Positions 10,964-35,001 of a stretch of DNA of 35,492 nt are shown here, one piece after another. How positions within the stretch are numbered: the stretch's first letter is position 1; the number at the start of each line of letters is the position of its first letter. The notes beneath the pieces were generated by a model that was given only the letters and a program-made list of their open reading frames with translations, was not told the origin of the DNA and ran no database searches. Origin of the DNA: Candidatus Nanopelagicales bacterium (GTDB taxonomy: Bacteria > Actinomycetota > Actinomycetes > S36-B12 > JBBRLC01); NCBI GenBank assembly GCA_038231595.1, contig JBBRLC010000001.1:1-35492 (forward strand), given 5' to 3'. The position numbers and the translations under genes were made by a program.

Positions 10964-12250
10964 TCAGTAAGCGACGTCAGAAGTCACATAAGTGATTTTC
11001 ACCGGCGGGTTGGTTCCGTCATCGAGACCGGTGTATCCGCAGTTCGTGGACAGCACATCAGGCCCACCCACGGTCGGAGTTTCACCGTCGAGCTTGACCC
11101 GAGGCACATCAATCTGCACCGAGTACGGGATGACGGTGCTTGCAATTACGTCGCCAGTGAACTTGAGCTGCAAGGACAGATCGGCGTCGGCGGCGTAAGC
11201 ATCATAGAGTGCGGCGCGAGAAATGAAGTCGGCTTCTAGTGCGCCGGTGACTCCGCGCCAACCGTTACCGATCGGTTCGCTCTTCAACCCAGAGCCGCCG
11301 AGATAGAATCGGTCGACCTTCTGCGGGTTCATATTCTTGACGTTGGCCTTCTTGACCGCCGCAATTGCCGTGCCGTTGAGCAGCAATGTGGCCTGCAAGA
11401 ATGAGAACGCCGAAGCGGTAGCACCATACGTCGGGGTTGCAAGCGCCGGTCCCGGCGCCAACGTCGTACCCGGAGCGTCGGCGCCAGTGTCGGAGTAGTT
11501 GGTGACCGTGACGTTCTTCATCAACGTCTCAGCGCCAGTCGTCTTGCCGTACACGTTGTACGACAAGGCAGCGGCGACTGCGGTCCAGGTGAGGTTGTTC
11601 TTGTTGGTGCCGGTCAGCACCGCGTTGCCGGTGGCGATAACTACCTCAGCGCACGCGCCCGTCTCTCCGGCGGGCAGCACCGCAGACACGCGGTAGTAGT
11701 AACTCGTGGAGCCAGCGGTGCCCGCGGTGGCAACCGCGAGACCCGCAGGCGCGTTGGCGAGAGTCTGTTCGTCTTGGAAATCGAACGTCAACGCCAACTT
11801 GGCCAACTGGTCGGCACCGATGCTGATGTCCCAGTCGATGACCTTGCCGCCGCAGTAGGTGAAGGGGTTGTTCACCGTGTCAATCGACGGCGTCGCTTCC
11901 TGCAACGTCAACGACAGACCGGTCAGGGAGCCGGGGACGTGGACCTGAGTGTAGGCAGCACCGGCGTTCGACGCCGTCGATGAGCCGAGCATGTGCTTGA
12001 ACAGCAACCCCATCCCCGTCGCTGACAGGTCACCCTTCCAGCTGCCCTTGGCGTCGCGGGTGGAAATCTTGCGTCTGTTGGAACGTGGGTACAGTCCACC
12101 GCCACGCAGGCCAGTACCCTGAATGGTTTTTTTGTTCCGCTGGATGGTTTCGCTATCGAACTCAAGCCACCGCGACGGCGTGACAGGCACGCCGTAGGTG
12201 GTCTCTTGACCGAAGCCGATGCTGGCGTCTAAGCCGGTGCCGCTACCCAT
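10964..12250 (-). CDS. major tail (tube) protein with FN3-like insertion
   Basis: Tail-tube-like N-terminus (SIGFGQETTYGVPV…EFDSETI). Inserted YYYRVSAVLPAGETG…LTWTAVAAALSYNVYG segment. Position is upstream of the tape measure. Confidence 0.7.
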   Translation of the reverse strand: MGSGTGLDASIGFGQETTYGVPVTPSRWLEFDSETIQRNKKTIQGTGLRGGGLYPRSNRRKISTRDAKGSWKGDLSATGMGLLFKHMLGSSTASNAGAAYTQVHVPGSLTGLSLTLQEATPSIDTVNNPFTYCGGKVIDWDISIGADQLAKLALTFDFQDEQTLANAPAGLAVATAGTAGSTSYYYRVSAVLPAGETGACAEVVIATGNAVLTGTNKNNLTWTAVAAALSYNVYGKTTGAETLMKNVTVTNYSDTGADAPGTTLAPGPALATPTYGATASAFSFLQATLLLNGTAIAAVKKANVKNMNPQKVDRFYLGGSGLKSEPIGNGWRGVTGALEADFISRAALYDAYAADADLSLQLKFTGDVIASTVIPYSVQIDVPRVKLDGETPTVGGPDVLSTNCGYTGLDDGTNPPVKITYVTSDVAY

Positions 12251-14177: not shown

Positions 14178-14569
14178 GGCGCAACGATCGGTGTGTCAAC
14201 AACTACGGCGTCGTCAACAACAACCTGCGCGGCATCGGTTGTTGGCACATCCGATACGACCACCGATATTGCGGCGGCGAAATCTTTGAACTCCGGTGAT
14301 GTGGACGGCGAGGCGAGAAGTTTGTCCAAAGCTTGGGCGAACACGTCGGACGCTTTCGCTGCTCGAGCGGAGTCGACCGCGTCTTGCGTTTCACGGGCGA
14401 CGCCTGCCGCTTGCGCGGCAGCGGCAGCGGCGAGATCCGCCGCAATGGATCGCGTCGAGAGAATCTTCCCCGTTTCGATTTCGGTGACGACTTCAATCTC
14501 TTTCACGTTGTCGGCAACGATCTGGATGTGCCGCCCCTGATCGTCCGTGCTGGTGAGGGTGAGGATCAT
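14174..14569 (-). CDS. hypothetical structural-module protein (131 aa)
   Basis: ATG 14569 overlaps the fibre-gene stop (ATGA). The track's longer N-terminus lies inside the fibre gene. Confidence 0.6.
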   Translation of the reverse strand: MILTLTSTDDQGRHIQIVADNVKEIEVVTEIETGKILSTRSIAADLAAAAAAQAAGVARETQDAVDSARAAKASDVFAQALDKLLASPSTSPEFKDFAAAISVVVSDVPTTDAAQVVVDDAVVVDTPIVAP

Positions 14570-16761
14570 CCCAGGACCTCGACTAGTGTGACACGGACGG
14601 TGGCGGAATCGGTGAGGAAACCCCACGAGTTCGCCGCGAAGATGTTCGCGAAGCCCGGCACCGTCGCGGTGAAGAAGTCGTACGCGGTGCCGAGGAGGCC
14701 GTAAGACAGAGACGCGGCGGGGACTTTGCTGATGGTGAACTTGTGGCCGAAACGCTGAACGATGAGTTCGTCACCGGCTGCGATCGTTGGGCCGGTGCCC
14801 AAGGAGTAATCCACGGAAGAAAAGGAGTCAAGCGTTCGCATCGTGACGACCCCAGCGGAGTCAACTCGGGCGCCGAATCCGTAGATCCCGGCTGAATAGT
14901 TGAACTGCCCGATGTAAAGGAACTTGCCAGCGTCGGGCAGCGTCCCGACGACGCACTTCATTGAGAAGAAAGCCGAAGGTTGACCGTTGCTAGACAAGTC
15001 CTTCGGATATGTATAGTAGCCGAGGGTGCCGCCGGTGGTCGCTTGGAACCCGCCGGAATAGGTAAGCCCTGAGGTGGTGACGTCGCTGTTCGGCGAGGAC
15101 AAGGTTCCGGCCGCGTCGGTTACCGTGACGCGCCAACCAGGCACCACGGCGGCTAGCATCGATTCGGTACGTTGCGCGAGATAGACACGCTTTTTCCAGG
15201 TGCCACGGTTCGTGACCCATGCCCCGGCAACCTTGAAGTAGAGCAGCCCGTCTTCTGCGGTTTGCTGCTGCGAGGTGCCTTGGAGGATGTACCAGTCGCC
15301 GTCCGCGCCGAGCGTCGCTGCCGGGGTACCGGAACCTACGAACACTTTGCCCTGGGCGAGCCCTTGAGTAAATGTCAGCGCCGTGGTACCGAGGGTGATC
15401 ACGTCGTTCGTTTCCAACTTCCAGAAGGAGTTGGAATACGTGGTGCCCTCGGACACGTGGACCGCGACACCGGCTTTCATCTCCGCCGACGTGTCCGAAT
15501 CAGCCGACCGCGTCCACGCGCCACCAGACACCACGTCATAAATGCCATTGTTCGCCGCTGTCGTCTGACCCACGCATAGAACACGGTCACCAGCAACGAC
15601 AGCAACACCATCAATGGTTTGCGTGTTCGACAACGTAATGTTCGCCGTAGCAACGACACGGCAGGCGTCTTTCCAATAGATCGACGCTGCACCGGCGCCG
15701 CCAGCGGCGGCCCACTTCATGCCTGTTGTTTGAGTCGAATCCGCCGTCAACACCTGCGTGTTCGAACCCACAGCCAGGTTCGCGACCGCACCCGAACCGG
15801 TCGCACCAATCAGATCGCCCTTCGCCGTCACCGTGGCAAGTGGCACATCCTTGTTCCCCAACGCCAACGTCGAACCAGTAGACCCCGCCAACAAGGCAGC
15901 CGCCTGCGCCACCGTCAAATCAGCCGGATTCGCTGTTGAACCGGTGTTGTTCCCCTTAAGCGTTGCCGCCGCCATCTGCGCGGACTTCGCGTTCGACACC
16001 GCATTGCTGGCCACAGTCGGGTTCGGCAACGTACCGGCGAGGTCACCGCCAACAGCGGCAGCCTCACGGCCGTGTTTGTGATCAGAACGCGCCAGCGATG
16101 CCGCCGAACCGACCGCGGCGGCGTCACCCAACGCCGACGTGCCAGGCGCGGCCGTGGTCACCGCATCGGCAGCACCAGGGGCATGTGAGGCGGCGTGAGC
16201 ATTCGGGGTGCGCGCATCCGAGAGCCGCGAGTCATTACCGACCGCCGCCGACGTGCCGGTCGATCCGTAGGCCACCGTCAACGTGCGATCAGCGGACAAG
16301 TCGCCACCACCGGTCAAACCGGTACCGGCGGTGATCTGCCGCGTCGTGGGGGCTTTCGCCGCCAAATCTGTCACTAAATTGGTGGTGTCCGACTCGGCGT
16401 GGGTGTGAACTGACGCGGCTTTACCGGCCAGATCGGCGACAAGGTTGGTGGTGTTCGACTCTGTGTGCGTATGCCCCGTTGCGGCCTTACCGGCCAAGTC
16501 AGTGACCAAATTCGACGTGTCGGATTCGGCGTGAGTGTGAACTGACGCGGCTTTACCGGCGACCGTCGTATCCGAGGCGTCGAGTCGGGCCTTCACGGTC
16601 GCGGCCGCGCCCTGCGCGTTCAGCCCAAGGTTCGCCTGAACGGCCTCAACCGCCTGCGCGACACCGGTATGCAACACATCATGCTCGAAGCCAGTTGCGT
16701 CCTCAAGCGTTGCCGCGATCGGCTTCGGCAACGAGTCAAAGGCCGTGGGCCATGAAGACAT
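14566..16761 (-). CDS. fibre-like protein with three 22-aa HxH repeats and a C-terminal lectin-like (LamG-type) domain
   Basis: 731 aa. The unit AGKAASVHTHAESDTSNLVTDL occurs three times, with further HxH/HKH sites, a Gly/Ala/Thr-rich shaft, and a C-terminal beta-rich domain. Confidence 0.8.
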   Translation of the reverse strand: MSSWPTAFDSLPKPIAATLEDATGFEHDVLHTGVAQAVEAVQANLGLNAQGAAATVKARLDASDTTVAGKAASVHTHAESDTSNLVTDLAGKAATGHTHTESNTTNLVADLAGKAASVHTHAESDTTNLVTDLAAKAPTTRQITAGTGLTGGGDLSADRTLTVAYGSTGTSAAVGNDSRLSDARTPNAHAASHAPGAADAVTTAAPGTSALGDAAAVGSAASLARSDHKHGREAAAVGGDLAGTLPNPTVASNAVSNAKSAQMAAATLKGNNTGSTANPADLTVAQAAALLAGSTGSTLALGNKDVPLATVTAKGDLIGATGSGAVANLAVGSNTQVLTADSTQTTGMKWAAAGGAGAASIYWKDACRVVATANITLSNTQTIDGVAVVAGDRVLCVGQTTAANNGIYDVVSGGAWTRSADSDTSAEMKAGVAVHVSEGTTYSNSFWKLETNDVITLGTTALTFTQGLAQGKVFVGSGTPAATLGADGDWYILQGTSQQQTAEDGLLYFKVAGAWVTNRGTWKKRVYLAQRTESMLAAVVPGWRVTVTDAAGTLSSPNSDVTTSGLTYSGGFQATTGGTLGYYTYPKDLSSNGQPSAFFSMKCVVGTLPDAGKFLYIGQFNYSAGIYGFGARVDSAGVVTMRTLDSFSSVDYSLGTGPTIAAGDELIVQRFGHKFTISKVPAASLSYGLLGTAYDFFTATVPGFANIFAANSWGFLTDSATVRVTLVEVLG
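16369..16566. repeat. 3 x 66-bp tandem repeat (coding for the HxH units of the fibre gene)
   Basis: Three successive approximately 66-nt units are readable directly in the sequence. Confidence 0.85.
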
Positions 16762-18686: not shown

Positions 18687-19616
18687 CTACGCGCGATTGC
18701 GCGCTGCGAGCAGTTGACGCTCGCGGACGAGTTCGGGAAGGTCGCTCGCGGCAACAGATTCCGACTCGCCAGTCTGTGTGTCCGACGCATCGTCGGCGTC
18801 AGGGTTAGGAACACCCATGAGGTCCGCGAGTAGCGGCTGTGCGGCGTCCACGGCGTCGTCGGCCTCAGAAATCAGGCCGAGAACCTCTTGCAGCACGCCC
18901 ATAGTCGCCGCCGAAAGTTTCGCCCCGGCCCGGGTTTCATCAGCAGCGCGCTGCCCGATTAGCGCAGGAATGCGCGTCCGCATCAACGACGCCGCCTGCC
19001 GCTTACGCAACGCCGTCGTCCCCGTCGTCGCCGGGTTCGCGGGCCACGTCACAACCGACGTGTCGCCCCCGTCAATGTCAACGGCGTGGATATCGCGCTG
19101 ATCGTAATCCGGGGACCATGTTTGCTCGGTCACCCAAAACGCGAATGACATCGCATCGAGGTCACCGCGCTCCATCGCTGAACGAACCTGATGCACGTCG
19201 GCACGGGTCGCGTCCAGGTCAGCTTCTACGTGAAGCCCCGTCGAATCCGCACCCAACCGCTGCGAGCCCGACTTGGTGCGCGCCATGGGTGCGCCGTCCC
19301 AAGCGTGGTTGAGGCAGAAGATCACGTCGGGTTTGTTGCCCAACGTCCGGGTGAAGCAGCCGTCACGCATGATCTCGGTGTAGTCGCCAAGCCAGTCAGT
19401 AATGACGTAAGGCACGTCAACGACGCAGGCATACCCGGTGAAGACCAACTCGTCAGTGCTACCGGGCTTGGCGCGTAGTTCGATCTCGCGAAAGGCCATG
19501 TCTAGCGTGTTCACGCCGACTGCTTGACGCAGCATCGGGCGCAACGCGCGAATATCACCGTCTAAAACGCGTTTCTCGAACTCTGGGGTGAGAACCCCGC
19601 CGGAACGGATCTTCAT
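18687..19616 (-). CDS. prohead (capsid maturation) protease, HK97 family
   Basis: FTGYACVVDVPY…DGCF…LNHAWDG pattern. ATGA overlap with the portal stop. Confidence 0.9.
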   Translation of the reverse strand: MKIRSGGVLTPEFEKRVLDGDIRALRPMLRQAVGVNTLDMAFREIELRAKPGSTDELVFTGYACVVDVPYVITDWLGDYTEIMRDGCFTRTLGNKPDVIFCLNHAWDGAPMARTKSGSQRLGADSTGLHVEADLDATRADVHQVRSAMERGDLDAMSFAFWVTEQTWSPDYDQRDIHAVDIDGGDTSVVTWPANPATTGTTALRKRQAASLMRTRIPALIGQRAADETRAGAKLSAATMGVLQEVLGLISEADDAVDAAQPLLADLMGVPNPDADDASDTQTGESESVAASDLPELVRERQLLAARNRA

Positions 19617-20875
19617 ATCGTGCTCCCATCGGTGGCGGTCGGGTCCGCTTGCATCCCGGTGGCCGGGTCAATGGGCGGTGGGACGGCACTGTTGGTGTTG
19701 AAAGGAATGTTGTAGTCAGTTCCATCAGGCCCGCCGATGGCCGGCCAACCTTCATCGGCGCGGATCTCGTCTCGGTTGCGGATGCCGACTAGGCGATGCG
19801 CTTGTGCGATTTGTGCGCGCTCCAGAGCCGATGCGCGCAGTAGCCCGGAGAAGTCGAATTGGGTCCATGTTGATTGCCCGCCGGGGACCATGGCGTTCCA
19901 CACCGTTTCGAGCTGCCATGCGAACGGCAGCAGCGTGTGGGTTGCGTACCCCTGATCAATCGCGTCGAGCCCTTTTCCGCCGCCCTGGGAGGCGTGAGCA
20001 ACGATCGCCATGATCCGTTGCAGTGGCACTCCGAACCATCCGCAAATCTCTTCGCGCAGCAGCGACCGCGTTCCTAGGAACTGGGCGTTCTCCGGTGTGA
20101 CCGACATCTGCTTCCACGAAGCGCCGCCAGATAGCACCGCAACCCGGTGGGCGTTGGCGAGCCCGGAGTTCCCAACCTCCCAACCGTCTTTGAGCGCTCT
20201 GGCTCCTTTGCGATCCAATTCGCCCGGGGCCTCGATCACGCCACTTGGTGAAGTGCCGTTACGGAAGAAGTTCGCGCCGTACTCGTTGACGTCGGCCGCC
20301 AGGCCCCAGTTGATGCGCTGGTAAGTCACTGGATCAACGCCAGCCAAATCCCCTGGCAACATAAGGCCGGTGAAATGCTTGACCTTGTCTCCGCCGTAAT
20401 ACTCGTTATTGATCTTGAATAACTTGGCGCGAGTCGCCGAGTCTCGATACACCGACACTCGGTCGGGGTGCAGGATCTGCAGCTGCAACGGGTTCCCCTG
20501 TGAGTCGGACTGCGTGACAAACGTGAACGCGTTGCCGCGTAGCGTGATCGACGCGACGATTTGCCCGATCCCAGCCTGCAAAGACAAGTCCGGCCCGAAA
20601 GGCTCGGCGACGATCTGCGGTTGACTCGCGAGACGCTGCTTCACTCCGTGGCGGTCACCGGTGTATGCGGCGAAGGGCAAGATGCCCATGTCGTTGTGCA
20701 ACACCTTGACGCAGTTGAGCACCGTCGACACACCCAATGCGGCCGACTCGTTGAGGAAGCCACCGACGCTACCGCCGAAGGATGAGTTCGGCGGTAGCGA
20801 CGAGTCGCCAAACTCGGCTCCCCGAGTTGTCACCGAGTTGCGCGCGTTGCGAACCGCACGACCGAAAAGATCCAC
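19613..20875 (-). CDS. portal protein
   Basis: 420 aa between the terminase and the protease. GTG start. Confidence 0.9.
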   Translation of the reverse strand: MDLFGRAVRNARNSVTTRGAEFGDSSLPPNSSFGGSVGGFLNESAALGVSTVLNCVKVLHNDMGILPFAAYTGDRHGVKQRLASQPQIVAEPFGPDLSLQAGIGQIVASITLRGNAFTFVTQSDSQGNPLQLQILHPDRVSVYRDSATRAKLFKINNEYYGGDKVKHFTGLMLPGDLAGVDPVTYQRINWGLAADVNEYGANFFRNGTSPSGVIEAPGELDRKGARALKDGWEVGNSGLANAHRVAVLSGGASWKQMSVTPENAQFLGTRSLLREEICGWFGVPLQRIMAIVAHASQGGGKGLDAIDQGYATHTLLPFAWQLETVWNAMVPGGQSTWTQFDFSGLLRASALERAQIAQAHRLVGIRNRDEIRADEGWPAIGGPDGTDYNIPFNTNSAVPPPIDPATGMQADPTATDGSTI

Positions 20876-21021
20876 TACCGATCGCCGCGCTCATCAGCGA
20901 ACGCGAAGCCCAACACGGCCAGTGACACGCCAAGCGCCAGAACCGCCCAGCGCAAACCGAACGTCGCGGCGAACCCCACCAGGCACAACAGTGCGGCGAT
21001 CTGACAGATCAGCGTTCGCAT
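20875..21021 (-). CDS. 48-aa two-TM membrane protein between TerL and portal (not in ORF track)
   Basis: Encodes MRTLICQIAALLCLVGFAATFGLRWAVLALGVSLAVLGFAFADERGDR. Its ATG overlaps the TerL stop by 1 nt, and its TAG overlaps the portal GTG by 1 nt. Confidence 0.5.
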   Translation of the reverse strand: MRTLICQIAALLCLVGFAATFGLRWAVLALGVSLAVLGFAFADERGDR

Positions 21022-22607
21022 CAGCCGTCCTCATCGTCGTCGGAATGTTGATGCCCGCAATCAAGGCAAGGAGCACTATCGGCAGGAAATTCGAAGTGAC
21101 ATTCGCAGTCGGAGCAGTTGCCGAGTTGGCCAAAAAAGAATGCCGAAGGCTGCGGCGCCTTGTCGTCGGGTTGTCGCACAGCCCACGCCGCTAACGCGAC
21201 CGCGTACAGCGGCGACAAGTCAACACCTTCGTCAGCATCGAAGATCCACTCCCCTTTGCCAGACGAACGACGCGCCACCTGAACAGAAACACCCAAGTCG
21301 GCGTCACCACGGTGCGCCAACGTCCCCGCGTTCACCGCGTCGAACAGCGCCGCACATGCGCGACGCACCTCGGTCGATGTCATCGCATCGAAACCGGGCA
21401 GATCCTCAAAATCGGTACTCAGCGATCCCGCGGCCATCGAAGATGCCAACACGACACTCGATGCGCCATGGCGCTCTACTCGATCGGTCACCCAAGGAAC
21501 AACCCAGGCGACACCCTCATCGTGGGCGACCAGCTCGACGTGCAGAATCCCGTCACCACGCAGCGATGCAACCGCAACCGATGACCACGCCCGATCCGGC
21601 GTGACATGCACGCCGAACACGATGCGATCCCCAGGCGTTGAGTCCGGGTCGGTCAACTTCCACCACGCGGGCATGTGGAACAGCCCACCAATCGCGGAGG
21701 ATTCCCACCAACCCATGCGCTCGCGGGCGAACTCCGCCGGCGGAAGTGAACGACGCTCGGCCGCGATGTAAGTCTCGGTGATTCGCTTACCCATCGCAGG
21801 GTTCGCTTGCTGCCAAAACTTGCGATTGTCCAGTGAGCATCCGACCGCGTTGCGGTGATGGTCGCAATCCTTCGACGTGCATCCACCTTCGGGGGCGCAC
21901 CACTCGATGTAGACCAGCGACGGGTCTCCGCCTTCACGTCCGCGATCCCTGACGAGCTGCAATACCAGCGAGATCGCGAGACCGGCACTGGATGCGTACA
22001 GAACCATCGGATTCGGACGGGCCGACAGCGTGGGCAGCAACGCGCCCATCATCTCGGCGGTCAGGAACAAAGCCTCATCAAGAATGACAAGGTCGCCGGA
22101 CAGTCCACGGCCCGATGCCTGGGATCGAGCAATGAAGATGATCCGCGAGCCGTTTACAAACTCGAAAGACTCTTCACCGTTGGAGAACGACACCCGTGAA
22201 ATACGTCGGGAAAGTTCCGGGGAAGATCGATACAACTTGAGCATCGCCAGGAACGCCTCATGCGCGGTCTTGTACCGGTGCGCCGACCAAACAACGAGCT
22301 GATCGGGCTTCGATATTGCGACCAGGAGAGCAACCGGCATGAGCACGCCGACGCTCTTGCCGTTCTGCCGGGACTCGATCAGGGCCGCCTCGAGAGCGGC
22401 CCACCGCTCTTCACCGTCAGGACCAGACACAACCGAGAGAATGGCGTCGAGCGCGAGGGCCTGTTCGGCGTCAAGGTCGAGGCCGAACACCTTGACCAGC
22501 GAGACCGCGAGGTCGCCCAGGGAATCCGAGCGCTCAGGAATCCACAAATGCGCCGGGTCGACCCGCTTACGCGCCAGAACGACGCTGCCTGCGCTCAAGG
22601 AGCTCAT
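21021..22607 (-). CDS. terL: terminase large subunit
   Basis: Walker A-like SRQNGKSVG and Walker B LVILDEA, followed by a C-terminal nuclease-like half. 528 aa. Confidence 0.92.
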   Translation of the reverse strand: MSSLSAGSVVLARKRVDPAHLWIPERSDSLGDLAVSLVKVFGLDLDAEQALALDAILSVVSGPDGEERWAALEAALIESRQNGKSVGVLMPVALLVAISKPDQLVVWSAHRYKTAHEAFLAMLKLYRSSPELSRRISRVSFSNGEESFEFVNGSRIIFIARSQASGRGLSGDLVILDEALFLTAEMMGALLPTLSARPNPMVLYASSAGLAISLVLQLVRDRGREGGDPSLVYIEWCAPEGGCTSKDCDHHRNAVGCSLDNRKFWQQANPAMGKRITETYIAAERRSLPPAEFARERMGWWESSAIGGLFHMPAWWKLTDPDSTPGDRIVFGVHVTPDRAWSSVAVASLRGDGILHVELVAHDEGVAWVVPWVTDRVERHGASSVVLASSMAAGSLSTDFEDLPGFDAMTSTEVRRACAALFDAVNAGTLAHRGDADLGVSVQVARRSSGKGEWIFDADEGVDLSPLYAVALAAWAVRQPDDKAPQPSAFFFGQLGNCSDCECHFEFPADSAPCLDCGHQHSDDDEDG

Positions 22608-26611: not shown

Positions 26612-28966
26612 TCATCTTGGCTTCGATTCGCCCAGTTTGAAACGCCCCTGATCGTTAGTTATCCACAGGAGATCGATAGCGAGTTCAGTGGCGTCACCTT
26701 GGAACTTCCGGCTGCTCTCAGCGGCCCTCGCAAAGCAGCTCTTGGTGCATCCGCCGCCTTTGTCTTCGTGGTATTTGGCGGTGTCGTGGGCTTCGATGAT
26801 GCCCCTGTATCGCAGTGCCACCTTCTTGAGGTGGTCACCTAGTTCGGTGTCGTTGGCGATCTGCCGGCGGGCATCGGAGCGGCCTTTGTTCTCGTTGAGG
26901 TCGCCGCGTTCGGTGGCCCGCATCGCCATGATTCCGTCACGTACCGTGTTCGATGCGTCGATGAGAACGCCGGATAGCTCCCACATGGCGTCGTCGATGT
27001 CGCCTCCACCGTGGAGTAGCGACAGGGCTACGGCTGCCTTCAGGCGGCACATAACGAGGTGGCCGTCTAGGGCGTCGATGGCAAACTTGTTCTGTTTGCG
27101 CTTGTTGTTGCGGACGTAGTCGACGACGTGTTGTGGCATTTGCACCTCAACCATGCGTTCGGTGGTGGTGCCGCCGTGTGCGATGGGTGGGCGCCAGTCG
27201 AGCGGGTCAGGTGTGGGCGGCTCAACGTCGGGCATGTGGGGGTCGATGGTGGGTAGCCATAGGAACCGTTGTGGCGTGCCCGCTGCTGTGGCATCGGCGC
27301 CTAGCAGGGCTTCTGCGCGCCCTGGTTGTACGCCTGCAATGAGCGCGAGTCGGTAGGCGTGTTCGGAGAGGTGTCGGCGACGGCTGGGGTCTGCGTTGTG
27401 GGTGCCGACTGCCGATCCTGACCAGATTGAGCGTAGGAACGGCCCGATCGTGGCGCCTTGCCTAGAGGACAGGGCGGCGAAGGTGTCGATTTCGTCGATG
27501 GTGACGATGGCGCGCCAGCGTGTTTGCACCCATTCGACGTGTCCGTCTTGCTTTTGTGGCTCGATGTAGAGGGCGATGAGTCCTTCGCCTGAGCCGATGC
27601 CGAATGATTCAACTTCGTCGTAGCCGAGTAGTTCGCGTGCGACTGAGGATGTGACGGATTTGCCGGAGCCTGATGGGCCGACGAGGGCGACGTAGGTGTT
27701 GAGGCTGCCTTGTGATCCGACTGTGGACGGCAGGACTAGGGACGGCCCGGTGGCGGCGATGATGCGGGCGAGTGTGGCGCCTAGTAGCGCCCAGGGGCTG
27801 ATGAGTCGTGCGCGGGCGAACGTGGCGACGTGGGTGAGTGTCGGCGTGGCTGCGAAGAAGGCAGTCTCGACGGCCAGGGGTGGCACCCAGGCGGTGCGGG
27901 AGATGAGCGCGGGTGGCGATTGTGCAGATTGTTCAGTATTTGGCTCGTTGACTGACACACGCGAAGGCGCTGCCTGTGCGCCATAGCCGGATGCGGCGAG
28001 CGCCTTTGTGGCCGCCCGCATGTCGCCGTGGTGCTCAAGGCGGGCGTAGACGTAGAACTTGGTGGACGGCTGATCTGCGGGTAGGTCTGTTGATGTGGTG
28101 AAGACGTACATGTGGCGGTCGCGGGTAGTTGCGCTGATGCCGATGTCTTTGCCGGGGCGTCGCCATGCCTCGTTGGGTAGTCCGCCGCGTGTGGCGGTGT
28201 AAACGTGTCGCCACCCGTGGCGGGTGAGCAGTTCGGCCCAGTCGCCGCGTTCGTTGTAGTCGTCCACGGGCGAGTCGGAGCCGTGCAGCATTGATTTGCC
28301 TGTGGGCGTGGGTGTGGATACGGGCGCGACAGATTGGTCGAGGAAGCGCAGCAAGGCGTGCAGGGCGTCGCGTTCGACGTTGGTGAAGTCTGGGGTGTGT
28401 TCGGGCTGAGTGGCGTTGATGAGGACGTAGTTGGCGCCGAGGTCGTGGCCCTTGCGTCCTGTGGTGGGGGCGACGATGACGAATCCGCCTTCGCCACGCG
28501 TCTCGGCGAGCACCTTTTTGGCGGTGTCGTCGTAGGCGAGTTTCGTGTTGCCTAGTGCTGGGCCGTCGCTGACGCGGATGAACATGTGTAGCCCAGCGGT
28601 GGGCGACATTTCGACGCAACCGCCGAGCGCGCGGTCAAGTAGGTCGCCTAGCCCTGAGGCTTCGGCAACGGCTTTGATGTCTGTGATGGCACCGGCCTTG
28701 ACGGCGATGCCTTCAAGCTCCAACATCTCAACGCGCCCGGATGTCGCCCCGGTGAGCACGCCGATGCCGTCGTATTTGCCTGACGCCATCCATTCGATGA
28801 CCTGTTCACGGCTGGGGCGTTGGGTTTGGTAGTCCTTCCATGCGCCGAAGGGGCGTTTGTCGCGGTCGGGGTGGCTCGGTACGACGGCGTAGCCTGCGTC
28901 GAACCATCGCAGGGCTGCCGTTTGTAGCGCGCTGCTCGTTGGTGTGGCAGCGGTGTCCACGCCCAC
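26612..28966 (-). CDS. bifunctional primase-polymerase / helicase (PrimPol N-terminus, D5-like ATPase)
   Basis: GTG start. AGYAVVPSHPDRDKRPFGAWKDYQ…GIGVLTG. Walker A GPSGSGKS and Walker B IVTIDEID. Confidence 0.9.
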   Translation of the reverse strand: MGVDTAATPTSSALQTAALRWFDAGYAVVPSHPDRDKRPFGAWKDYQTQRPSREQVIEWMASGKYDGIGVLTGATSGRVEMLELEGIAVKAGAITDIKAVAEASGLGDLLDRALGGCVEMSPTAGLHMFIRVSDGPALGNTKLAYDDTAKKVLAETRGEGGFVIVAPTTGRKGHDLGANYVLINATQPEHTPDFTNVERDALHALLRFLDQSVAPVSTPTPTGKSMLHGSDSPVDDYNERGDWAELLTRHGWRHVYTATRGGLPNEAWRRPGKDIGISATTRDRHMYVFTTSTDLPADQPSTKFYVYARLEHHGDMRAATKALAASGYGAQAAPSRVSVNEPNTEQSAQSPPALISRTAWVPPLAVETAFFAATPTLTHVATFARARLISPWALLGATLARIIAATGPSLVLPSTVGSQGSLNTYVALVGPSGSGKSVTSSVARELLGYDEVESFGIGSGEGLIALYIEPQKQDGHVEWVQTRWRAIVTIDEIDTFAALSSRQGATIGPFLRSIWSGSAVGTHNADPSRRRHLSEHAYRLALIAGVQPGRAEALLGADATAAGTPQRFLWLPTIDPHMPDVEPPTPDPLDWRPPIAHGGTTTERMVEVQMPQHVVDYVRNNKRKQNKFAIDALDGHLVMCRLKAAVALSLLHGGGDIDDAMWELSGVLIDASNTVRDGIMAMRATERGDLNENKGRSDARRQIANDTELGDHLKKVALRYRGIIEAHDTAKYHEDKGGGCTKSCFARAAESSRKFQGDATELAIDLLWITNDQGRFKLGESKPR

Positions 28967-29606: not shown

Positions 29607-30377
29607 TTATGCCCCGATTGCGTGCGAGACGCTTTCGGAAAGTTGTGTGTTTGCCGTGTTCCCTGGGCAGCCGCGCTGGAACGTCTCGTCGCCAGGTGTG
29701 TAGAACGGGCACCATTGACAGTCGGTTGGCGTGGCGGGGATGTGCGCCAACATCGTCGGGTTGTGTAGCAGGTCAAGCACGCCAACGGCGACAGCGACGG
29801 CATCGAGGCGGGCCAGTAGCGCCTCAACCTGGTCAACGTCGTAGGCCGCTGACCAAACGTGCAGCCCGGTGGTGGGGTTGGTGATGAACCCGCTGCGCGG
29901 GTATGCCGCGATGGCAACGTCGTTGACTGTGTGACCCTGTAACGCCAACCCGTGCCCGTACAGCATCACTTGGTTGACGTATTGCTCTTTCGGCCCGCGT
30001 AGTCGCAACTCACGATGTGAGTCGGTGCCGAGGATCTTGTGGTCGATGACGGTGCCGCTCGGGATGTGGAACAGGTCAACGGTGCTCGACTCGATGTAGC
30101 CGGGAATCGTGATCTTGTGCTCGATCAGCCAGTCGGCTGCGCTGTCGCTTGCCCCGAGAGCGTCGGCCAACCATGCGTGTGTTGCGGTGCCCACGATGGC
30201 GCACCAGGGGTCGCCACGATCGGCGCGCTGTGGCAGGCCAACGTGTTTCGCTGCGATGAAACGCGCGCACGGGTGCCCCGCCTCCGATGCGCCGAGGTGC
30301 GCTTGTAGGCTGCGCGGCTTGTTGGCGTCGGCGTGCAACACGATCCCGCGTAGCGTTGCAACGAGGTTGAATCTCAT
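29607..30377 (-). CDS. Cas4/RecB-like PD-(D/E)xK exonuclease with Fe-S cysteines
   Basis: VDLFHIPSGTVIDHK (D…DxK) and QYVNQVMLY (QxxxY). Cys at HPCARF plus CQWCPFYTPG…C. Confidence 0.85.
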   Translation of the reverse strand: MRFNLVATLRGIVLHADANKPRSLQAHLGASEAGHPCARFIAAKHVGLPQRADRGDPWCAIVGTATHAWLADALGASDSAADWLIEHKITIPGYIESSTVDLFHIPSGTVIDHKILGTDSHRELRLRGPKEQYVNQVMLYGHGLALQGHTVNDVAIAAYPRSGFITNPTTGLHVWSAAYDVDQVEALLARLDAVAVAVGVLDLLHNPTMLAHIPATPTDCQWCPFYTPGDETFQRGCPGNTANTQLSESVSHAIGA

Positions 30378-30814
30378 GCGAATTTCCTTTTCCCCTGCTT
30401 CTGATCGTTGAGTCGGTCACACGCCTTGCAGTACCTGTTGCCGTTGCGGCGGATGCCGGTGTTGGCGTCGTTGAAGCTGTGGCCTCGCGGGCAGAACATT
30501 TGACGCGTCATCGACTTGCGCTTGCCCGTCTTGCGTCGCAGCGATTGACGTTCGGCAGGGGTTAGCCCGCCCCACACGCCGTAGTCCTCGTTCATGCCGA
30601 CTTCGAGGCATGCGAGTTGAACGGGGCAATCAGCGCAGATGGATTTGATGTAGGCGACGTTTTCGCGCACGCGTGCGCGTGCGGTGTCGCCGAACATGGT
30701 GTCGTCGTTGAGGCCGAGGCAGTTGGCTCGGCGATGCCAGTCGGGTGAGTTGAAGGCGGGGACGGTGTAGCCCTCGCCGATGACGGGGTTGTCTCCGTGG
30801 CGCCGTTGCGTCAC
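30374..30814 (-). CDS. whiB: WhiB-family regulator fused to a C-terminal zinc-ribbon
   Basis: CLGL…CADCPVQLAC…GVWGG, then CPRGH…GNRYCKAC. GTG 30814 gives a GTGA overlap with the upstream stop (the track start at 30838 is also GTG). Confidence 0.85.
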   Translation of the reverse strand: MTQRRHGDNPVIGEGYTVPAFNSPDWHRRANCLGLNDDTMFGDTARARVRENVAYIKSICADCPVQLACLEVGMNEDYGVWGGLTPAERQSLRRKTGKRKSMTRQMFCPRGHSFNDANTGIRRNGNRYCKACDRLNDQKQGKRKFA

Positions 30815-31146
30815 AACTCCACCGCCCTGAGTAGCCACAGGAATGTGGCGCCGTTCATGACGACGAAGCCGTCAAGCGGTGACGTTTTGCCCCGCGACTT
30901 CGCCCACACGACGCCGTACTCAGCACCATCGTTTTTGCGTTCGATCTCGGCTTCTTTCAACCATCCGGCGATGTCGTAGGTCTTGACGGCTTTCGCTTCA
31001 ATCACCCAGCCGATAACCCCGGCGATGTCGCCGCGGTCCAGTGCGCCGGACAGTGCGCGGCGTTCAGCACCGGGGAAGCCGTTGGCACGCAGGGTGGTCA
31101 CGATGGCGGACTCCCACGACGTGCCCTTGTTCTTGCTACGGTTCAT
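30811..31146 (-). CDS. Hjc-like PD-(D/E)xK nuclease (putative Holliday junction resolvase)
   Basis: KGTSWESAIVTTLRANGF…DRGDIAGV…VIEAK. Confidence 0.7.
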   Translation of the reverse strand: MNRSKNKGTSWESAIVTTLRANGFPGAERRALSGALDRGDIAGVIGWVIEAKAVKTYDIAGWLKEAEIERKNDGAEYGVVWAKSRGKTSPLDGFVVMNGATFLWLLRAVEL

Positions 31147-31262
31147 GCCGCGTCACTGCGGAGGGCTTTGATCGTGTCGCAGGGCCAGACGTAGCCGCAG
31201 CTGTCGCAGTAGTCCACGCCGATGGCGTAATCGCGGCAAGGGACGTGCCTGGTGTCGGTCAT
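31143..31262 (-). CDS. 39-aa Cys-rich protein (not in ORF track)
   Basis: Encodes MTDTRHVPCRDYAIGVDYCDSCGYVWPCDTIKALRSDAA. ATGA overlaps at both ends. Confidence 0.5.
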   Translation of the reverse strand: MTDTRHVPCRDYAIGVDYCDSCGYVWPCDTIKALRSDAA

Positions 31263-31447
31263 GCGCCTCGTTCCACCTTCGGCGGTGGCGTCGGCAACTT
31301 CAACAGCACCAACACGTTCAGCGCCTTCGCTATCTCCGATAAGACGAACAGGTTGCTGTGGGCGAGTGTGCGTTTCTGCAAGGCGTCGAGTTTGCGTATC
31401 GCAGTCTCAGCGCGGACGCGCTGCTCGTGCGCCGCCATCCCGTTCAT
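31259..31447 (-). CDS. hypothetical protein (62 aa)
   Basis: Track ORF. ATGA overlaps at both ends. Confidence 0.6.
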   Translation of the reverse strand: MNGMAAHEQRVRAETAIRKLDALQKRTLAHSNLFVLSEIAKALNVLVLLKLPTPPPKVERGA

Positions 31448-32160
31448 GCCGTTGCCGCCATGAGTAGTGACTGCTCGACGGGGGTGAGGCTATGGCTTTC
31501 GGTGCGCCCCGTGAGCCGGTCGTGTTCGTCTATCAGCCCAGTAAGGAATGCGATCCCGCCAGCGGCGCCCCTACTGGCGTCCTCGGCAGCGGCGGCGGCG
31601 TCGGCGGCGTCGGCAGCGGCGGCAGCGGAGGCGATAGCGAGTTCAGCGGCAGCGGTGGTGACGGAGGCGATAGCGAGTTCAGCGGCAGCGGAGGCGTAGG
31701 CAGCGGCGTAGGTGGCGCCGTCGGAGCGTTTCACGAATTCGGCTTTCGCCGCATCCCTCGCGGCGTAGGCGTTCTCCCTGCTCGGGTTGTCCGCCCACTT
31801 CTCAGCCGCAACAATTGCTGCCTCGCACGCGGTCTTGTCCTCGGGGCGAACCGCCCCGAACACCCGACGCGCCGACCAGACGGCGAGACGAACCGATAGG
31901 ACTTGGCGTTCCTCGGGGGAGCCTGTCTCGGCGGTGCCGAACAGGCGCCCAATCAGCGGCACCAGCAGGTGCCGCTCCCCATCTTCCAGGCGGTCGTTCA
32001 CGTTGCGCGCCACTGTTGCCAGCACCGGATGCGTACACCCAGGGTGGTCTGAAAACTTTTCACCGGCGAGGATGGACACGTATTCCATCAAACAAGCCCC
32101 ATCCTCGGGGCGTTCGTGTGCGCCCTTCGCTAGCACGGGCATGAACTCTGGCGTTGTCAT
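31444..32160 (-). CDS. uncharacterised protein, tandem paralog A (238 aa, Ala-rich variable core)
   Basis: The start MTTPEF… at 32160 has the same GGAAGGTGTAACCAA leader as paralog B. Conserved N-terminal (about 135 aa) and C-terminal (about 45 aa) blocks. Confidence 0.8.
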   Translation of the reverse strand: MTTPEFMPVLAKGAHERPEDGACLMEYVSILAGEKFSDHPGCTHPVLATVARNVNDRLEDGERHLLVPLIGRLFGTAETGSPEERQVLSVRLAVWSARRVFGAVRPEDKTACEAAIVAAEKWADNPSRENAYAARDAAKAEFVKRSDGATYAAAYASAAAELAIASVTTAAAELAIASAAAAADAADAAAAAEDASRGAAGGIAFLTGLIDEHDRLTGRTESHSLTPVEQSLLMAATA

Positions 32161-32177
32161 TTGGTTACACCTTCCGT

Positions 32178-32894
32178 TCATGCCGTTGCCCCCATAAGTA
32201 GTGACTGCTCGACGGGGGTGAGGCTATGGCTCCCGGTGCGTTTCGTGAGCCGGTCGTGTTCGTCTATCAGTCCGGTGAGGAATACGATCCCGCCAGCGGC
32301 GCCCCTACTGGCGGCAGCGGCGGCAGCGGAGGCGATAGCGAGTTCAGCGGCAGCGGAGGCGTCGAACGCGAAGTCCGCGCAGATTGCGGCGTAGACTTCG
32401 GCGGCAGCGGTGGGGGAGGAGGCGCAGATAGCGAAGCCCGCGGCAGAGACGCCGTCCTCGGCAGCGGCGGCAGCGGAGGAGACGGAGGCAGCGGCGGCAG
32501 CGGCGTTCTCCCTGCTCGGGTTGTCCGCCCACTTCTCAGCCGCCACAATGGCTGCCTCGCACACCGCCCTGTCCTTCCGGCGAAGATCCCCGAACACCCG
32601 TCGCACCGACCAGACGGCGAGACGAACCGACAAAACTTGCCGCTCTGCGGGGGTGCCCGCCTCGGCGGTGCCGAACAGGCGCCCAATCAGCGGCACCAGC
32701 AGGTGCCGATCCGCATCGGCCAGGCGGTCGTTCACGTTGCGCGCCACTGTTGCCAGCACCGGATGCGTACACCCAGGCCGGTCTGAAAACTTTTCACCGG
32801 CGAGGATGCTCACGTATTCCATGAGACACGCCCCATCCTCGGGGCGTGCGTGTGCGCCCTTCGCTAGCACGGGCATGAACTCTGGCGTTGTCAT
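32178..32894 (-). CDS. uncharacterised protein, tandem paralog B (238 aa)
   Basis: Near-identical N- and C-terminal blocks to paralog A, with a divergent Ala-rich centre. Confidence 0.8.
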   Translation of the reverse strand: MTTPEFMPVLAKGAHARPEDGACLMEYVSILAGEKFSDRPGCTHPVLATVARNVNDRLADADRHLLVPLIGRLFGTAEAGTPAERQVLSVRLAVWSVRRVFGDLRRKDRAVCEAAIVAAEKWADNPSRENAAAAAASVSSAAAAAEDGVSAAGFAICASSPTAAAEVYAAICADFAFDASAAAELAIASAAAAAASRGAAGGIVFLTGLIDEHDRLTKRTGSHSLTPVEQSLLMGATA

Positions 32895-32992
32895 TTGGTT
32901 ACACCTTCCAGTTGGTAACGGTCAGGAGTCGGTCGAGGAATCTGTTCACGGGGTCACCGCCATCCCGTCGGCGAGGTGCGTCGCGAGGTAGG

Positions 32993-33424: not shown

Positions 33425-33609
33425 CAGCCCGCCTCAATCGCGCCGACAACGCAGAACAAGGCAATGGCGAAGACGACGAACAGGGCGGCGCCGACGTACC
33501 CGCCGAACGTCGGCGACTTCACCGCCCGTATCACCCGTGATACATCGCTGGCGAGGGTCCGGCTCTTGTGACTGACTGACCCGTAGCCGCGGGCTTCGCC
33601 AACCGTCAT
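33421..33609 (-). CDS. small C-terminally anchored membrane protein (62 aa)
   Basis: ATG 33609 overlaps the upstream stop (ATGA). TM helix GGYVGAALFVVFAIALFCVVGAI. Confidence 0.55.
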   Translation of the reverse strand: MTVGEARGYGSVSHKSRTLASDVSRVIRAVKSPTFGGYVGAALFVVFAIALFCVVGAIEAGW

Positions 33610-33962
33610 GGGTGACAGGGCAACGTCAGGATCGAACGGTACGTTCGCCAACCGACTGTTCCTGCGGTGTCGTGGCGTAGGTCCTGCCAACGTGTGTATG
33701 GGCGCAACAGGTACGGGTGACGTTTCTGAAACGCATACACCGCCGCCCGGTCCGCCGCATTGAACGGGCGCCACAGGGGTGTGACGGGCAACCCGAGATG
33801 TGCGCGAACGGTGTCAACGGTCGGCCCTTGCGCCCCGATATCGATGATGCGGTTGTCGTATCGCACTGACACGCATGTCGTTGTTGCTGCGTCTGCGGTG
33901 ACAGCGGGTGTGGCGGCGAGTAGTGCGGCGGTCGCTAAGACGGCGGCGCCGGTGCGGCGCAT
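33606..33962 (-). CDS. secreted protein consisting of a signal peptide plus a PG_binding_1-like domain
   Basis: Starts MRRTGAAVLATAALLAATPAVTADA. Carries GAQGPTVDTVRAHLGL…FQKRHPYLL…GTVGWRTYRSI, which parallels the endolysin C-terminus. Confidence 0.75.
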   Translation of the reverse strand: MRRTGAAVLATAALLAATPAVTADAATTTCVSVRYDNRIIDIGAQGPTVDTVRAHLGLPVTPLWRPFNAADRAAVYAFQKRHPYLLRPYTRWQDLRHDTAGTVGWRTYRSILTLPCHP

Positions 33963-34132
33963 CACGACGCGTCCTGCCTCATCGTTTCCAGCATGGCGAT
34001 TTCGCGGCGGCGTGCCACGTTGATGCGGTCGCGGTTGGCGCGGGCTTGCCCCATGCACGCACCGACGCAAAAAGCGGCGGTGAACAACAGGGAACCGCAA
34101 ACCCATGCGGCGCCTATCAATAGGACGTTCAT
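33962..34132 (-). CDS. 56-aa N-terminally anchored membrane protein (not in ORF track)
   Basis: Encodes MNVLLIGAAWVCGSLLFTAAFCVGAC… GGAAGG lies 7 nt upstream, and the stop overlaps the next ATG by 1 nt. Confidence 0.5.
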   Translation of the reverse strand: MNVLLIGAAWVCGSLLFTAAFCVGACMGQARANRDRINVARRREIAMLETMRQDAS

Positions 34133-34180: not shown

Positions 34181-34324
34181 TCACTGTTTTTCCCCTGCGC
34201 TGAATGGGCGCAGAACGTGCGCCAGTTCGTCTGCCAACGCTGTTGCGTCGTCGTGTAACATCGCTGCGCGACTGGAGTGCTGCGATGGGTCGCCTGTGTG
34301 TGCGGCGTGCAGGGTGCGGCTCAT
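34181..34324 (-). CDS. 47-aa protein sharing a motif with the 143-aa protein (not in ORF track)
   Basis: Encodes MSRTLHAAHTGDPSQHSSRAAMLHDDATALADELAHVLRPFSAGEKQ. ATGA overlap with the cro-like stop. Confidence 0.45.
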   Translation of the reverse strand: MSRTLHAAHTGDPSQHSSRAAMLHDDATALADELAHVLRPFSAGEKQ

Positions 34325-34509
34325 GCGGCGACCTGCGCAGTCCAGTTGCGCAGAGTGCGTTCCGTTACGTCAACCTGCCCGCCGCTGGCTTGGGCGATTG
34401 CCTGCCCGATTCGGCGCCACGAGACGCCTTGTGAGCGCTGGGAAACGATGAATGCCTCAACCGGTTGCCCTAGGGCTAGGTCTGCGAGGGCTTGGGCGTG
34501 GGTTCGCAT
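34321..34509 (-). CDS. cro: Cro-like HTH protein (62 aa), first gene of the leftward operon
   Basis: Internal ATG of track ORF 34321..34545. HTH SWRRIGQAIAQASGGQVDVTERTLRNW. Divergent from the repressor. Confidence 0.7.
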   Translation of the reverse strand: MRTHAQALADLALGQPVEAFIVSQRSQGVSWRRIGQAIAQASGGQVDVTERTLRNWTAQVAA

Positions 34510-34512
34510 AAC

Positions 34513-34606
34513 CCGGAACTTATTCCGGGAAACTGGAATAGTCAAGCATTTCCTGGAAACCCTTGCGCCATTCGGGTCCTGCGTCTATCTTCAGGAAACC
34601 GTTTCC
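34513..34606. promoter_or_regulatory. divergent control region with three TTCC/GGAA-type palindromes (candidate operators)
   Basis: CCGGAACTTATTCCGG (34513-34528), TTTCCTGGAAA (34549-34559) and GGAAACCGTTTCC (34594-34606). Confidence 0.5.
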
Positions 34607-34638
34607 GGTTTAGCGGAGACCATCTAGGGAGGAAACCA

Positions 34639-35001
34639 ATGAAAACGACGATGCCGAATTCCCCCGGCACTCGTGGGGAAATCGAAGAGAACGTGCGCCG
34701 AAACATCCTGGGAGAGCTAGGGAAACGGCGCGAACACCTGAACTGGCTAGCTGCCCTAGTCCCGTCGATTTCGCAATCGACGCTTTACTCGCGTTTCAGC
34801 GCCACGCACCCCACAAGGTTCACCCTGAGTGAGATTCTGGAAATCGCGGATGCTCTCGACGTAAGCGTGGAGGCTCTGTGTCTGGACCCTTTTGGGCAGC
34901 GTCGTGATCCCGCGCTGCGGCTCCCGCGTCTGGACTCGAACCAGAAACCTGCCGGTATCTGGTACAAAGCTAGCGCCCACAGGCTCAAGTCAGCAGCCTG
35001 A
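34639..35001 (+). CDS. rep: XRE/CI-type immunity repressor (virion form, 120 aa) ending in -SAA
   Basis: ATG preceded by GGGAGGAAACCA. HTH ISQSTLYSRFSATHPTRFTLSEILEIADALDVSVEAL. The C-terminus reads …HRLKSAA. Confidence 0.8.
   Translation: MKTTMPNSPGTRGEIEENVRRNILGELGKRREHLNWLAALVPSISQSTLYSRFSATHPTRFTLSEILEIADALDVSVEALCLDPFGQRRDPALRLPRLDSNQKPAGIWYKASAHRLKSAA
34918..34957 (-). other. attP common core: 3' part of a tRNA (T-arm plus acceptor strand), not a complete tRNA
   Basis: The minus strand reads …GGCAGGTT TCTGG TTCGAGT CCAGA CGCGGGA G. This is a perfect 5-bp T-stem, a TTCGAGT loop, a 7-nt acceptor 3' strand and a discriminator. No anticodon or D arm can be folded upstream. Confidence 0.6.

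Follow-up and report, generated by a model that had tools for sequence, protein, structure and literature searches.

A tandemly duplicated early gene in a siphophage-like contig encodes two versions of a candidate immunity-like protein with a codon-repeat core

Why would a phage carry two adjacent copies of one early gene, alike at both ends and different in the middle, and what might the two proteins do? The question is raised by a gene pair on the minus strand of contig JBBRLC010000001.1 (assembly GCA_038231595.1, Candidatus Nanopelagicales bacterium), a complete public contig of 35,492 bp that was analysed at full length and is referred to below as the window. An earlier note, made from the letters of the sequence, had drawn attention to the pair. 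We favour, at a probability of roughly 0.45, the view that it encodes an early immunity-like protein binder that may be kept as two variants, with a common scaffold and a different, slippage-diversified helical module in each. This view draws on the anatomy of the pair, the domain homology of the middle of its products, the repeat-driven turnover of the core, the single-copy relatives and the contrast between phage and chromosomal forms; the function itself is suggested by analogy with Imm5-class proteins, for which binding and neutralisation of toxin domains is predicted, and by the same contrast between phage and host.

The two genes, their leaders and the spacer are arranged as follows (nt, nucleotides; aa, amino acids; ORF, open reading frame).

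32178-32894, minus strand: copy B, the upstream gene, 238 aa plus stop (ORF list; identical to public protein P0001)
31444-32160, minus strand: copy A, the downstream gene, 238 aa plus stop (ORF list; matches P0002)
32161-32177, minus strand: 17-nt spacer, in which lie the duplication junction and one of the two ribosome-binding leaders (GGAAGG, 9 nt, ATG)
32895-32909, minus strand: copy B leader with its ribosome-binding site, the same sequence as ahead of copy A

Two head-to-tail units of about 734 bp with identical leaders had been described in the earlier note, and both observations hold: repeat finding gives two direct-repeat pairs at a spacing of 734 bp, one 300 nt long (89% identity) and one 188 nt long (85%), and the leader CATTTGGTTACACCTTCC (plus strand, 18 nt including the ATG) has two exact occurrences in the window (32158-32175 and 32892-32909), against none in 100 shuffles. 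An alternative ATG for copy A lies at 32181, overlapping the stop codon of copy B; the start at 32160 was chosen because it is homologous to the start of copy B and follows the identical leader. The two proteins are 73% identical overall. Their end blocks are near-identical, as had been noted, with 16 differences over residues 1-131 (~88% identical) and 4 over the 43 aa of residues 196-238 (~91%). Residues 132-195 show 47% nucleotide identity in register and an in-register alignment is impossible; this core had rightly been said to differ, its length being 64 aa in both copies instead of the roughly 60 aa first given.

The boundaries of the unit share a GG microhomology only, with no long shared k-mer, and the ATGA stop/start overlaps, both ORFs and both leaders are intact; we therefore read the tandem as a genuine duplication via illegitimate recombination, pending read mapping. 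That two strain alleles of one gene were strung together during assembly is very unlikely. Such an artefact would suit a single metagenome-type contig that has no second occurrence in any collection and relatives that are single-copy in 125 of 125 cases, but it agrees poorly with this 2-nt junction, at which gene end and gene start have no long k-mer in common, with the intact reading frames, leaders and overlaps, and with a flank divergence of 9% at the nucleotide level that is spread along both flanks and bears the signature of purifying selection and not of random error. For the flanks of the two copies the synonymous rate dS is ~0.18, the non-synonymous rate dN 0.069 and dN/dS 0.39; the differences (21.5 synonymous, 25.5 non-synonymous) depart from neutrality (Fisher p = 0.0017), which means that purifying selection has maintained both copies over some time. 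The duplication cannot be called very recent, and its earlier description as recent was overstated at this divergence.

Promoter and terminator scans gave nothing above shuffled expectation and no consensus between the copies, so that copies A and B would be co-transcribed. Both copies end in an ATGA stop/start overlap (stops at 31444-31446 and 32178-32180). The overlap after copy A starts a 62-aa ORF (31259-31447, minus strand, MNGMAAHEQ...) and that after copy B an alternative MNGRCNQ- extension of copy A; a downstream translational-coupling signal was therefore duplicated along with the gene. Every homologue supports the minus-strand frame, and the long plus-strand ORFs that overlap the genes (e.g. 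31492-31899 and 32226-32786) were for this reason set aside as the antisense ORFs that high-GC DNA typically shows.

The part that differs between the copies is an alanine-rich core, listed here with its main repeat array.

32310-32501, minus strand: variable Ala-rich core of copy B, aa 132-195, 33 Ala of 64
31576-31767, minus strand: variable Ala-rich core of copy A, aa 132-195, 33 Ala of 64
31611-31695, minus strand: 36-nt tandem repeat of core A, 2.4 copies, AAAELAIAS unit (Tandem Repeats Finder)

Arrays with periods of 27, 21, 9 and 3 nt, found by the same program, overlap the 36-nt array. The 29-nt motif pointed out previously occurs exactly at 31627-31655, 31663-31691 and 32328-32356 (0 expected by chance), with the 36-nt period as described, but the exact block common to the two cores is longer, 45 nt, and is displaced by 33 nt. 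Core A also contains a 30-nt unit repeated at the 36-nt period, and its tail segment AAAAEDA recurs near the start of core B. Given the displaced block, the repeated unit and the reused segment, the cores are mosaics of in-frame duplications, deletions and shuffling and not products of point substitution. Their alanine codons are mostly GCC/GCT, unlike those of the flanks, and the centre that had been called slippage-prone indeed consists of in-frame codon repeats. Both cores are exactly 64 aa long despite their different content.

Tandem codon repeats also run through the core in 26 of the 27 long homologues on viral or metagenomic contigs, with periods of 3-75 nt that are all multiples of 3, and the alanine fraction of the core is mostly 0.44-0.68, and 0.42-0.68 in all but two of these long forms. 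Core length ranges from 0 to 80 aa across the family and turnover is faster than in the flanks: in allele pairs from independent lineages with flanks ~95% identical, the cores are 56-71% identical, with 12-19 gap columns. Length variation of simple sequences is a feature of contingency-type coding repeats in bacterial and phage genes. The genes described here resemble them in that in-frame tandem codon repeats vary in length and sequence far faster than the flanks, as measured in these independent lineages, and are unlike them in that the protein would be cytoplasmic and not a surface antigen. Since the repeat units are multiples of 3 nt, they would generate protein variation and not ON/OFF phase switching. 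The word diversifying, which the earlier note used of the centre, nevertheless goes too far if it is taken to mean selection: unalignable cores make dN/dS meaningless, short members have no core and AlphaFold confidence collapses there. A core dN/dS of 1.06 was accordingly discarded, as the cores are not homologous position by position.

Two homologues show unusual readings of such repeats. In P0019 (L126 3391-3600) the core stretch TPPTPPPPPP is a +2-frame reading of an AAY/AAAAAY codon repeat (compared with P0034, L127) and the protein is back in the normal frame before the C-terminal helix; this could reflect either a compensating pair of frameshifts or indel errors in the contig. P0050 has an Arg-rich reading of a similar codon repeat.

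Core B furthermore contains a patch that matches a tail-fibre-like gene in inverted orientation.

32359-32390, minus strand: 32-nt patch in core B, encoding AAICADFAFDA, reverse-complementary to part of the tail-fibre-like gene
15968-15999, plus strand: partner of the patch, antisense in the tail-fibre-like gene (14566-16761, minus strand), whose coding strand reads VSNAKSAQMAAA

The patch and its partner agree at 24 nt without interruption and at 30 of 32 positions overall, with two matches in 0 of 100 shuffles, and the patch is missing from copy A. As the reading in the tail gene (VSNAKSAQMAAATLKGN...) overlaps a motif conserved in other phages, the patch was probably copied from the tail-fibre-like gene into core B. 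Both genes lie on the minus strand, so the mRNAs of copy B and of the tail-fibre gene would be complementary, with a predicted mRNA-mRNA duplex energy of -75.7 kcal/mol versus -32.7 +/- 4.3 for shuffles; the patch could be a relic of capture or, from the modelled duplex, a link between early and late transcripts. Programmed diversification of the core, by a diversity-generating retroelement or by cassette switching, might be considered on account of a variable region sharply bounded by conserved flanks and of a patch copied from elsewhere in the genome, but it is hardly credible. The window holds no template repeat, this inverted patch being the only other match to the cores, the ORFs scanned (a part of all ORFs in the window) include no reverse transcriptase or recombinase, and the differences between cores are block rearrangements and indels and not the adenine-specific substitutions of a retroelement target.

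What kind of protein surrounds this core? The helices that precede it are conserved.

32502-32651, minus strand: conserved helices of the Imm5_like-type domain of copy B, aa 82-131, LSVRLAVWSxRRVF...CEAAIVAAEKWA (hhalign 99.4%)
31768-31917, minus strand: conserved helices of the Imm5_like-type domain of copy A, aa 82-131 (hhalign; weak DUF6931 match in the same region)

The family consensus of this part is LSVRLAVWCARxVL...DRxVCxxAIxAAExW. It had been stated that the proteins hold no characterised domain, which was too strong: residues ~82-195 are homologous to the Pfam family Imm5_like. Copy A itself gave only DUF6931 in Pfam, at 15.7-16.2 bits and below the cut-off of 27. The full-length homologue P0041 (45% identical) reaches 28.7 bits for Imm5_like over residues 81-198, against a gathering threshold of 25, and nearly reaches Imm5; at E < 0.1, Imm5_like is matched by 10 of 64 family members, DUF6931 by 7 and Imm5 by 3. 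Native middle segments freed of the N-terminal domain match the N-terminal end of the Imm5_like model (profile positions 5-7) and four composition-matched shuffles of the middle do not match it, so that richness in alanine alone is not the cause. A profile of residues 82-195 matched 783 of 1.84 billion representative proteins at E <= 0.001; many of these are stand-alone proteins of 100-190 aa without the N-terminal domain, and 35 of 62 of them are Pfam Imm5_like (E < 1e-3). The family middle aligns with the stand-alone relatives at an hhalign probability of 99.4% over 59 non-repetitive columns. Moreover, a structure search in BFVD returned an 'Imm-5-like domain-containing protein' with a probability of 0.98. 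From this indirect evidence we conclude that the middle belongs to the Imm5_like superfamily, of which the window copies are divergent members, and that the N- and C-terminal elements are additions outside the Pfam model. The same profile also matches P0259 (2410 aa) in 12 separate stretches, as well as the long P0255 (548 aa) and P0343 (501 aa), and these three appear to be multi-domain Imm5_like proteins of the 'polyimmunity' type.

AlphaFold2 with the family alignment predicts all-alpha proteins for copy B (pLDDT, the predicted local confidence score, 83; pTM, the predicted template modelling score, 0.83) and copy A (pLDDT 79, pTM 0.78), with 10-11 helices and beta structure limited to two single-residue bridges. 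In the core pLDDT falls to 37-60, still with predicted helices, being below 50 at residues 150-164 and 174-177 of copy B and ~47-60 in copy A. Neither model contains a signal peptide or membrane segment. The best matches among predicted viral structures are uncharacterised phage proteins and the one Imm-5-like protein, and the PDB profile matches of alignment A6 were rejected as poly-Ala artefacts.

The helical middle is framed by two conserved elements.

32655-32894, minus strand: N-terminal domain of copy B, aa 1-80 (alignments of the family)
31921-32160, minus strand: N-terminal domain of copy A, aa 1-80, 92.5% identical to that of copy B
32181-32309, minus strand: conserved C-terminal segment of copy B, aa 196-238, with the FLTGLIDEHDRLT motif
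31447-31575, minus strand: conserved C-terminal segment of copy A, aa 196-238

The family alignment accordingly consists of three constant parts and one variable part. The N-terminal Cys/His/Glu domain of ~80 aa, with invariant or near-invariant residues that include P8, L10, G13, H15, C23, M25, E26, G33, E34, D38, P40, C42, D56 and R63, and the C-terminal helix (LTGLIDEHDRLT; consensus L(T/S)GLIDEYDRLTGRT) mark a family of hundreds of proteins, none of them functionally named. The homology search returned 125 proteins, mostly from metagenomic contigs, and the N-domain profile alone 377, with 0 functional names in either set. The few N-domain proteins with an organism name are all from Actinomycetota (Aeromicrobium, Frankia, Intrasporangium, Acidimicrobiia, Ilumatobacteraceae), most often Aeromicrobium. 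The N-domain has no match in Pfam, NCBIfam, PADLOC or PDB sequences. Among PHROG families there are distant likenesses: PHROG 3416 matches weakly over nearly the full length (aa 10-197, E = 1.5e-5 and 3.7e-4) and PHROG 13065 matches the N-domain only. A tblastn search of 50,697 deposited phage genomes gave just two weak matches, both limited to the N-domain (39-47% identity), in the human-gut phage contig MT835534.1 (161-433) and in Ralstonia phage RS-CA1 (PP316169.1, 19223-19432); the N-domain is therefore not confined to phages of Actinomycetota.

Is the duplication, or the variable core, a property of the family as a whole? The 125 related loci, drawn from viral contigs, metagenome contigs and genomes, show no second copy within +/-4-6 kb of the gene, and the duplication is thus lineage-specific. 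Of the two outcomes that the earlier note had named as decisive, the core proved highly variable in phage relatives, as it expected, while the homologues proved single-copy in all of these loci, contrary to it. A scan of one genome per species gave 135 relatives, overwhelmingly from Aeromicrobium and other Nocardioidaceae/Propionibacteriales, which are likely hosts for the family. Many of these cellular relatives are ~239 aa long and share the same gene order across Aeromicrobium species (L056 5001-5726; matching positions L049-L101), with a divergently transcribed MoxR (AAA_3)-DUF58-TgpA transglutaminase operon and a gene for a PHP/HHH-domain protein as neighbours; they retain the N-domain and the C-terminal motif, and their middle is conserved and non-repetitive, with a CRADCG motif. 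The chromosomal Aeromicrobium orthologues, which show 36-40% full-length identity to the window proteins, are like them in the N-domain, the homologous first helices and the C-terminal motif LIDxYDxxTGR, and unlike them in being single-copy, in gene order that is common across species and in a stable middle with an alanine fraction of ~0.2 and no real repeat arrays. The repeat-built core is therefore a trait of the viral and metagenomic-contig homologues.

The window as a whole looks like a siphophage genome transcribed nearly wholly from the minus strand, with the following genes assigned by family searches of its ORFs.

7747-10341: tape-measure-like protein
10964-12250: tail tube
14566-16761, minus strand: tail-fibre-like protein, 731 aa
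17175-18629: major capsid
19613-20875: portal
21021-22607: large terminase
26612-28966: primase/polymerase
29607-30377: Cas4-type exonuclease
30374-30838, minus strand: WhiB (domain at aa 34-100)
30811-31146: RusA
34321-34545, minus strand: small cro-like ORF, divergent from the putative repressor, weakly supported
34492-35001, plus strand: putative repressor (PHROG 4, E = 0.002, weak)

The duplicated genes lie ~1.4 kb downstream of the weakly supported divergent repressor/cro-like pair and are followed at a short distance by RusA and then by WhiB, the Cas4-type exonuclease and the primase/polymerase; from these neighbours their placement in the early region, proposed before, was upheld. Homologues in other actinophage contigs hold a comparable early position (four homologue contexts). 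That the host is an actinobacterium is indicated by the WhiB gene and by the relatives of the terminase, which show <40% identity and belong to phages of Mycobacterium, Arthrobacter, Gordonia and Propionibacterium. No near-identical DNA was found among deposited phage genomes. The WhiB gene start overlaps the RusA gene end by 28 nt, and the C-terminal extension of its product (aa ~101-152), probably a Cys-rich zinc-finger segment, gave matches to HNH-endonuclease PHROGs. Elsewhere in the early region, a signal-peptide-like stretch (MRRTGAAVLATAALLAATPAVTADA) comes after an internal Met in ORF 33606-34106 (minus strand); this ORF has no match in Pfam, PHROG, NCBIfam or PADLOC and may encode a secreted or lipid-anchored early protein.

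This setting bears on whether the pair could act in lysogeny, as an immunity expressed from the prophage that protects against polymorphic toxins of competitors (e.g. deaminases delivered by type VII secretion) or against superinfecting phages. The Imm5-class homology would fit, several homologue contigs carry integrases and so belong to temperate phages, and polyimmunity loci have no toxin genes beside them (PMC3482391). We consider such a role quite unlikely, as the genes stand within a string of early genes read in the lytic direction, share a strand with the replication and structural genes, are spaced 17 nt apart and lack a consensus promoter or terminator for themselves, no integrase is present among the scanned part of the window ORFs, and the models lack a signal peptide or membrane segment.

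How, then, might the pair have arisen and what might it do? On the reading that we favour, an early gene of an actinobacterial siphophage was duplicated in tandem, the 734-bp unit being joined at the GG microhomology. Each copy would be a soluble all-alpha protein made of the N-domain (~80 aa; Cys, Glu and Asp residues invariant, His and Arg nearly so), an Imm5_like-type helical domain and a C-terminal helix. The far half of the helical domain is spelled by GCC/GCT-rich codon repeats, whose periods are 9, 27 and 36 nt. On this reading they change through replication slippage or unequal exchange and, at least once, through capture of the foreign 32-nt patch, and such turnover leaves the same scaffold under purifying selection and different 64-aa cores. 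Made together early in infection, each protein may bind or inhibit a host or competitor protein one to one, with the Ala-rich helices forming or positioning the binding surface, and the two copies may represent two variants, like a minimal 'polyimmunity' pair. The anti-defence or exclusion role put forward in the earlier note is likewise an inference.

Imm5 is a mostly alpha-helical immunity protein, defined by comparative genomics, that is linked to DYW-type deaminase and CdiA-CT toxins and is also present in polyimmunity proteins (PMC3482391). Its relative Imm5_like (PF21805; related to PF14423 Imm5, PMC3482391) resembles the window proteins in being all-alpha, with an LAxW/FCAxxVL helix followed by an AIxAAExW helix and then Ala-rich helices, and differs from them in that they score below threshold, lack an adjacent toxin gene, carry an N-domain without a Pfam model as well as a conserved C-terminal helix, and have far helices whose coding sequence consists of unstable codon repeats. 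Immunity paralogues set in tandem on one strand with little space between them have been described (Zhang et al. 2012, PMC3482391). Like the homogeneous polyimmunity loci of that study, the window pair occupies one strand, has a 17-nt spacer and is not interrupted by a toxin gene, and translation from one transcript is probable; unlike them, it comprises two genes only, lies in a phage early operon and recurs as a tandem in 0 of 125 related loci, with an immunity role that is suggested by analogy. Compared with the Imm5-class proteins described there, the locus is without a polymorphic toxin among the neighbouring ORFs, and the two-gene tandem is no more than loosely polyimmunity-like.

Several results weigh against a binder kept as two variants. 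The window copies have no match to Pfam Imm5_like (gathering threshold 25 bits) or Imm5 even at E <= 10, nor to PADLOC and NCBIfam, and sequence and structure searches of the PDB gave no resembling solved structure (best Foldseek E-value 1.3). The immunity role of Imm5 is itself a prediction from comparative genomics, and our literature search found no functional study of Imm5_like, PF21805 or DUF6931. No toxin gene lies among the neighbouring ORFs of the window or in the four homologue contexts, and no conserved partner gene was found beside the homologues. Exact searches with the tandem junction and the shared 5' coding sequence gave no match in metagenome and viral contig collections. Furthermore, family members of 150-160 aa have no core at all, and these short forms, together with the low model confidence, suggest that the core may not be the functional surface.

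The last point leads to the alternative that slippage lets the core drift neutrally, as a tolerated helical spacer of low complexity, the N-domain and C-terminal helix being the functional parts (candidates being a small enzyme, a module for metal or redox binding and a regulator acting in the pathway of the chromosomal homologue) and the duplication being neutral or a matter of dosage. We hold this to be somewhat unlikely but worth serious attention. Conservation is indeed strongest in the N-domain and the C-terminal helix, the forms without a core exist, core pLDDT is <60, P0019 tolerates a frame-shifted poly-Pro/Thr reading of the repeat (possibly a sequencing error) and core B an inverted fragment of a tail gene, and the chromosomal orthologues are stable and single-copy. 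A drifting spacer would not lead one to expect, however, that 26 of 27 long viral and metagenomic-contig homologues retain the repeat-built core, in frame and with predicted helices, that AAxYAAxAA-type helices are also found in the stand-alone Imm5_like relatives, that both window cores have exactly the same length, which hints at a length constraint, or that both duplicates are under purifying selection. A bolder version of the binder reading would have actinophages take over a conserved host protein of the Aeromicrobium type and swap its stable middle for a codon-microsatellite 'alanine-coil', yielding an immunity-like binder or decoy that diversifies itself by slippage and patch capture, is present here as two recombinable cassettes and, through the ~32-nt patch, links the early mRNA of copy B to the late mRNA of the tail fibre; we regard this chain of events as speculative and improbable.

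The duplication in itself is ordinary, and what is new is the Imm5_like assignment of the middle, the phage-specific codon-repeat core and the inverted patch shared with the tail gene. The architecture of N-terminal Cys/His/Glu domain, Imm5_like domain and C-terminal helix is likewise new and matches no family in the libraries searched. If the core is a drifting spacer, the pair would be a lineage-specific duplication of an early gene like others. The locus is nevertheless a well-defined and testable candidate for a variable phage binder, with a credible neutral alternative, and the stable cellular orthologue provides a built-in comparison for the phage versions. Should the Ala-rich helices be a binding surface, phages would diversify a counter-defence or immunity-like protein by slippage of codon repeats, with no dedicated mutagenic machine.

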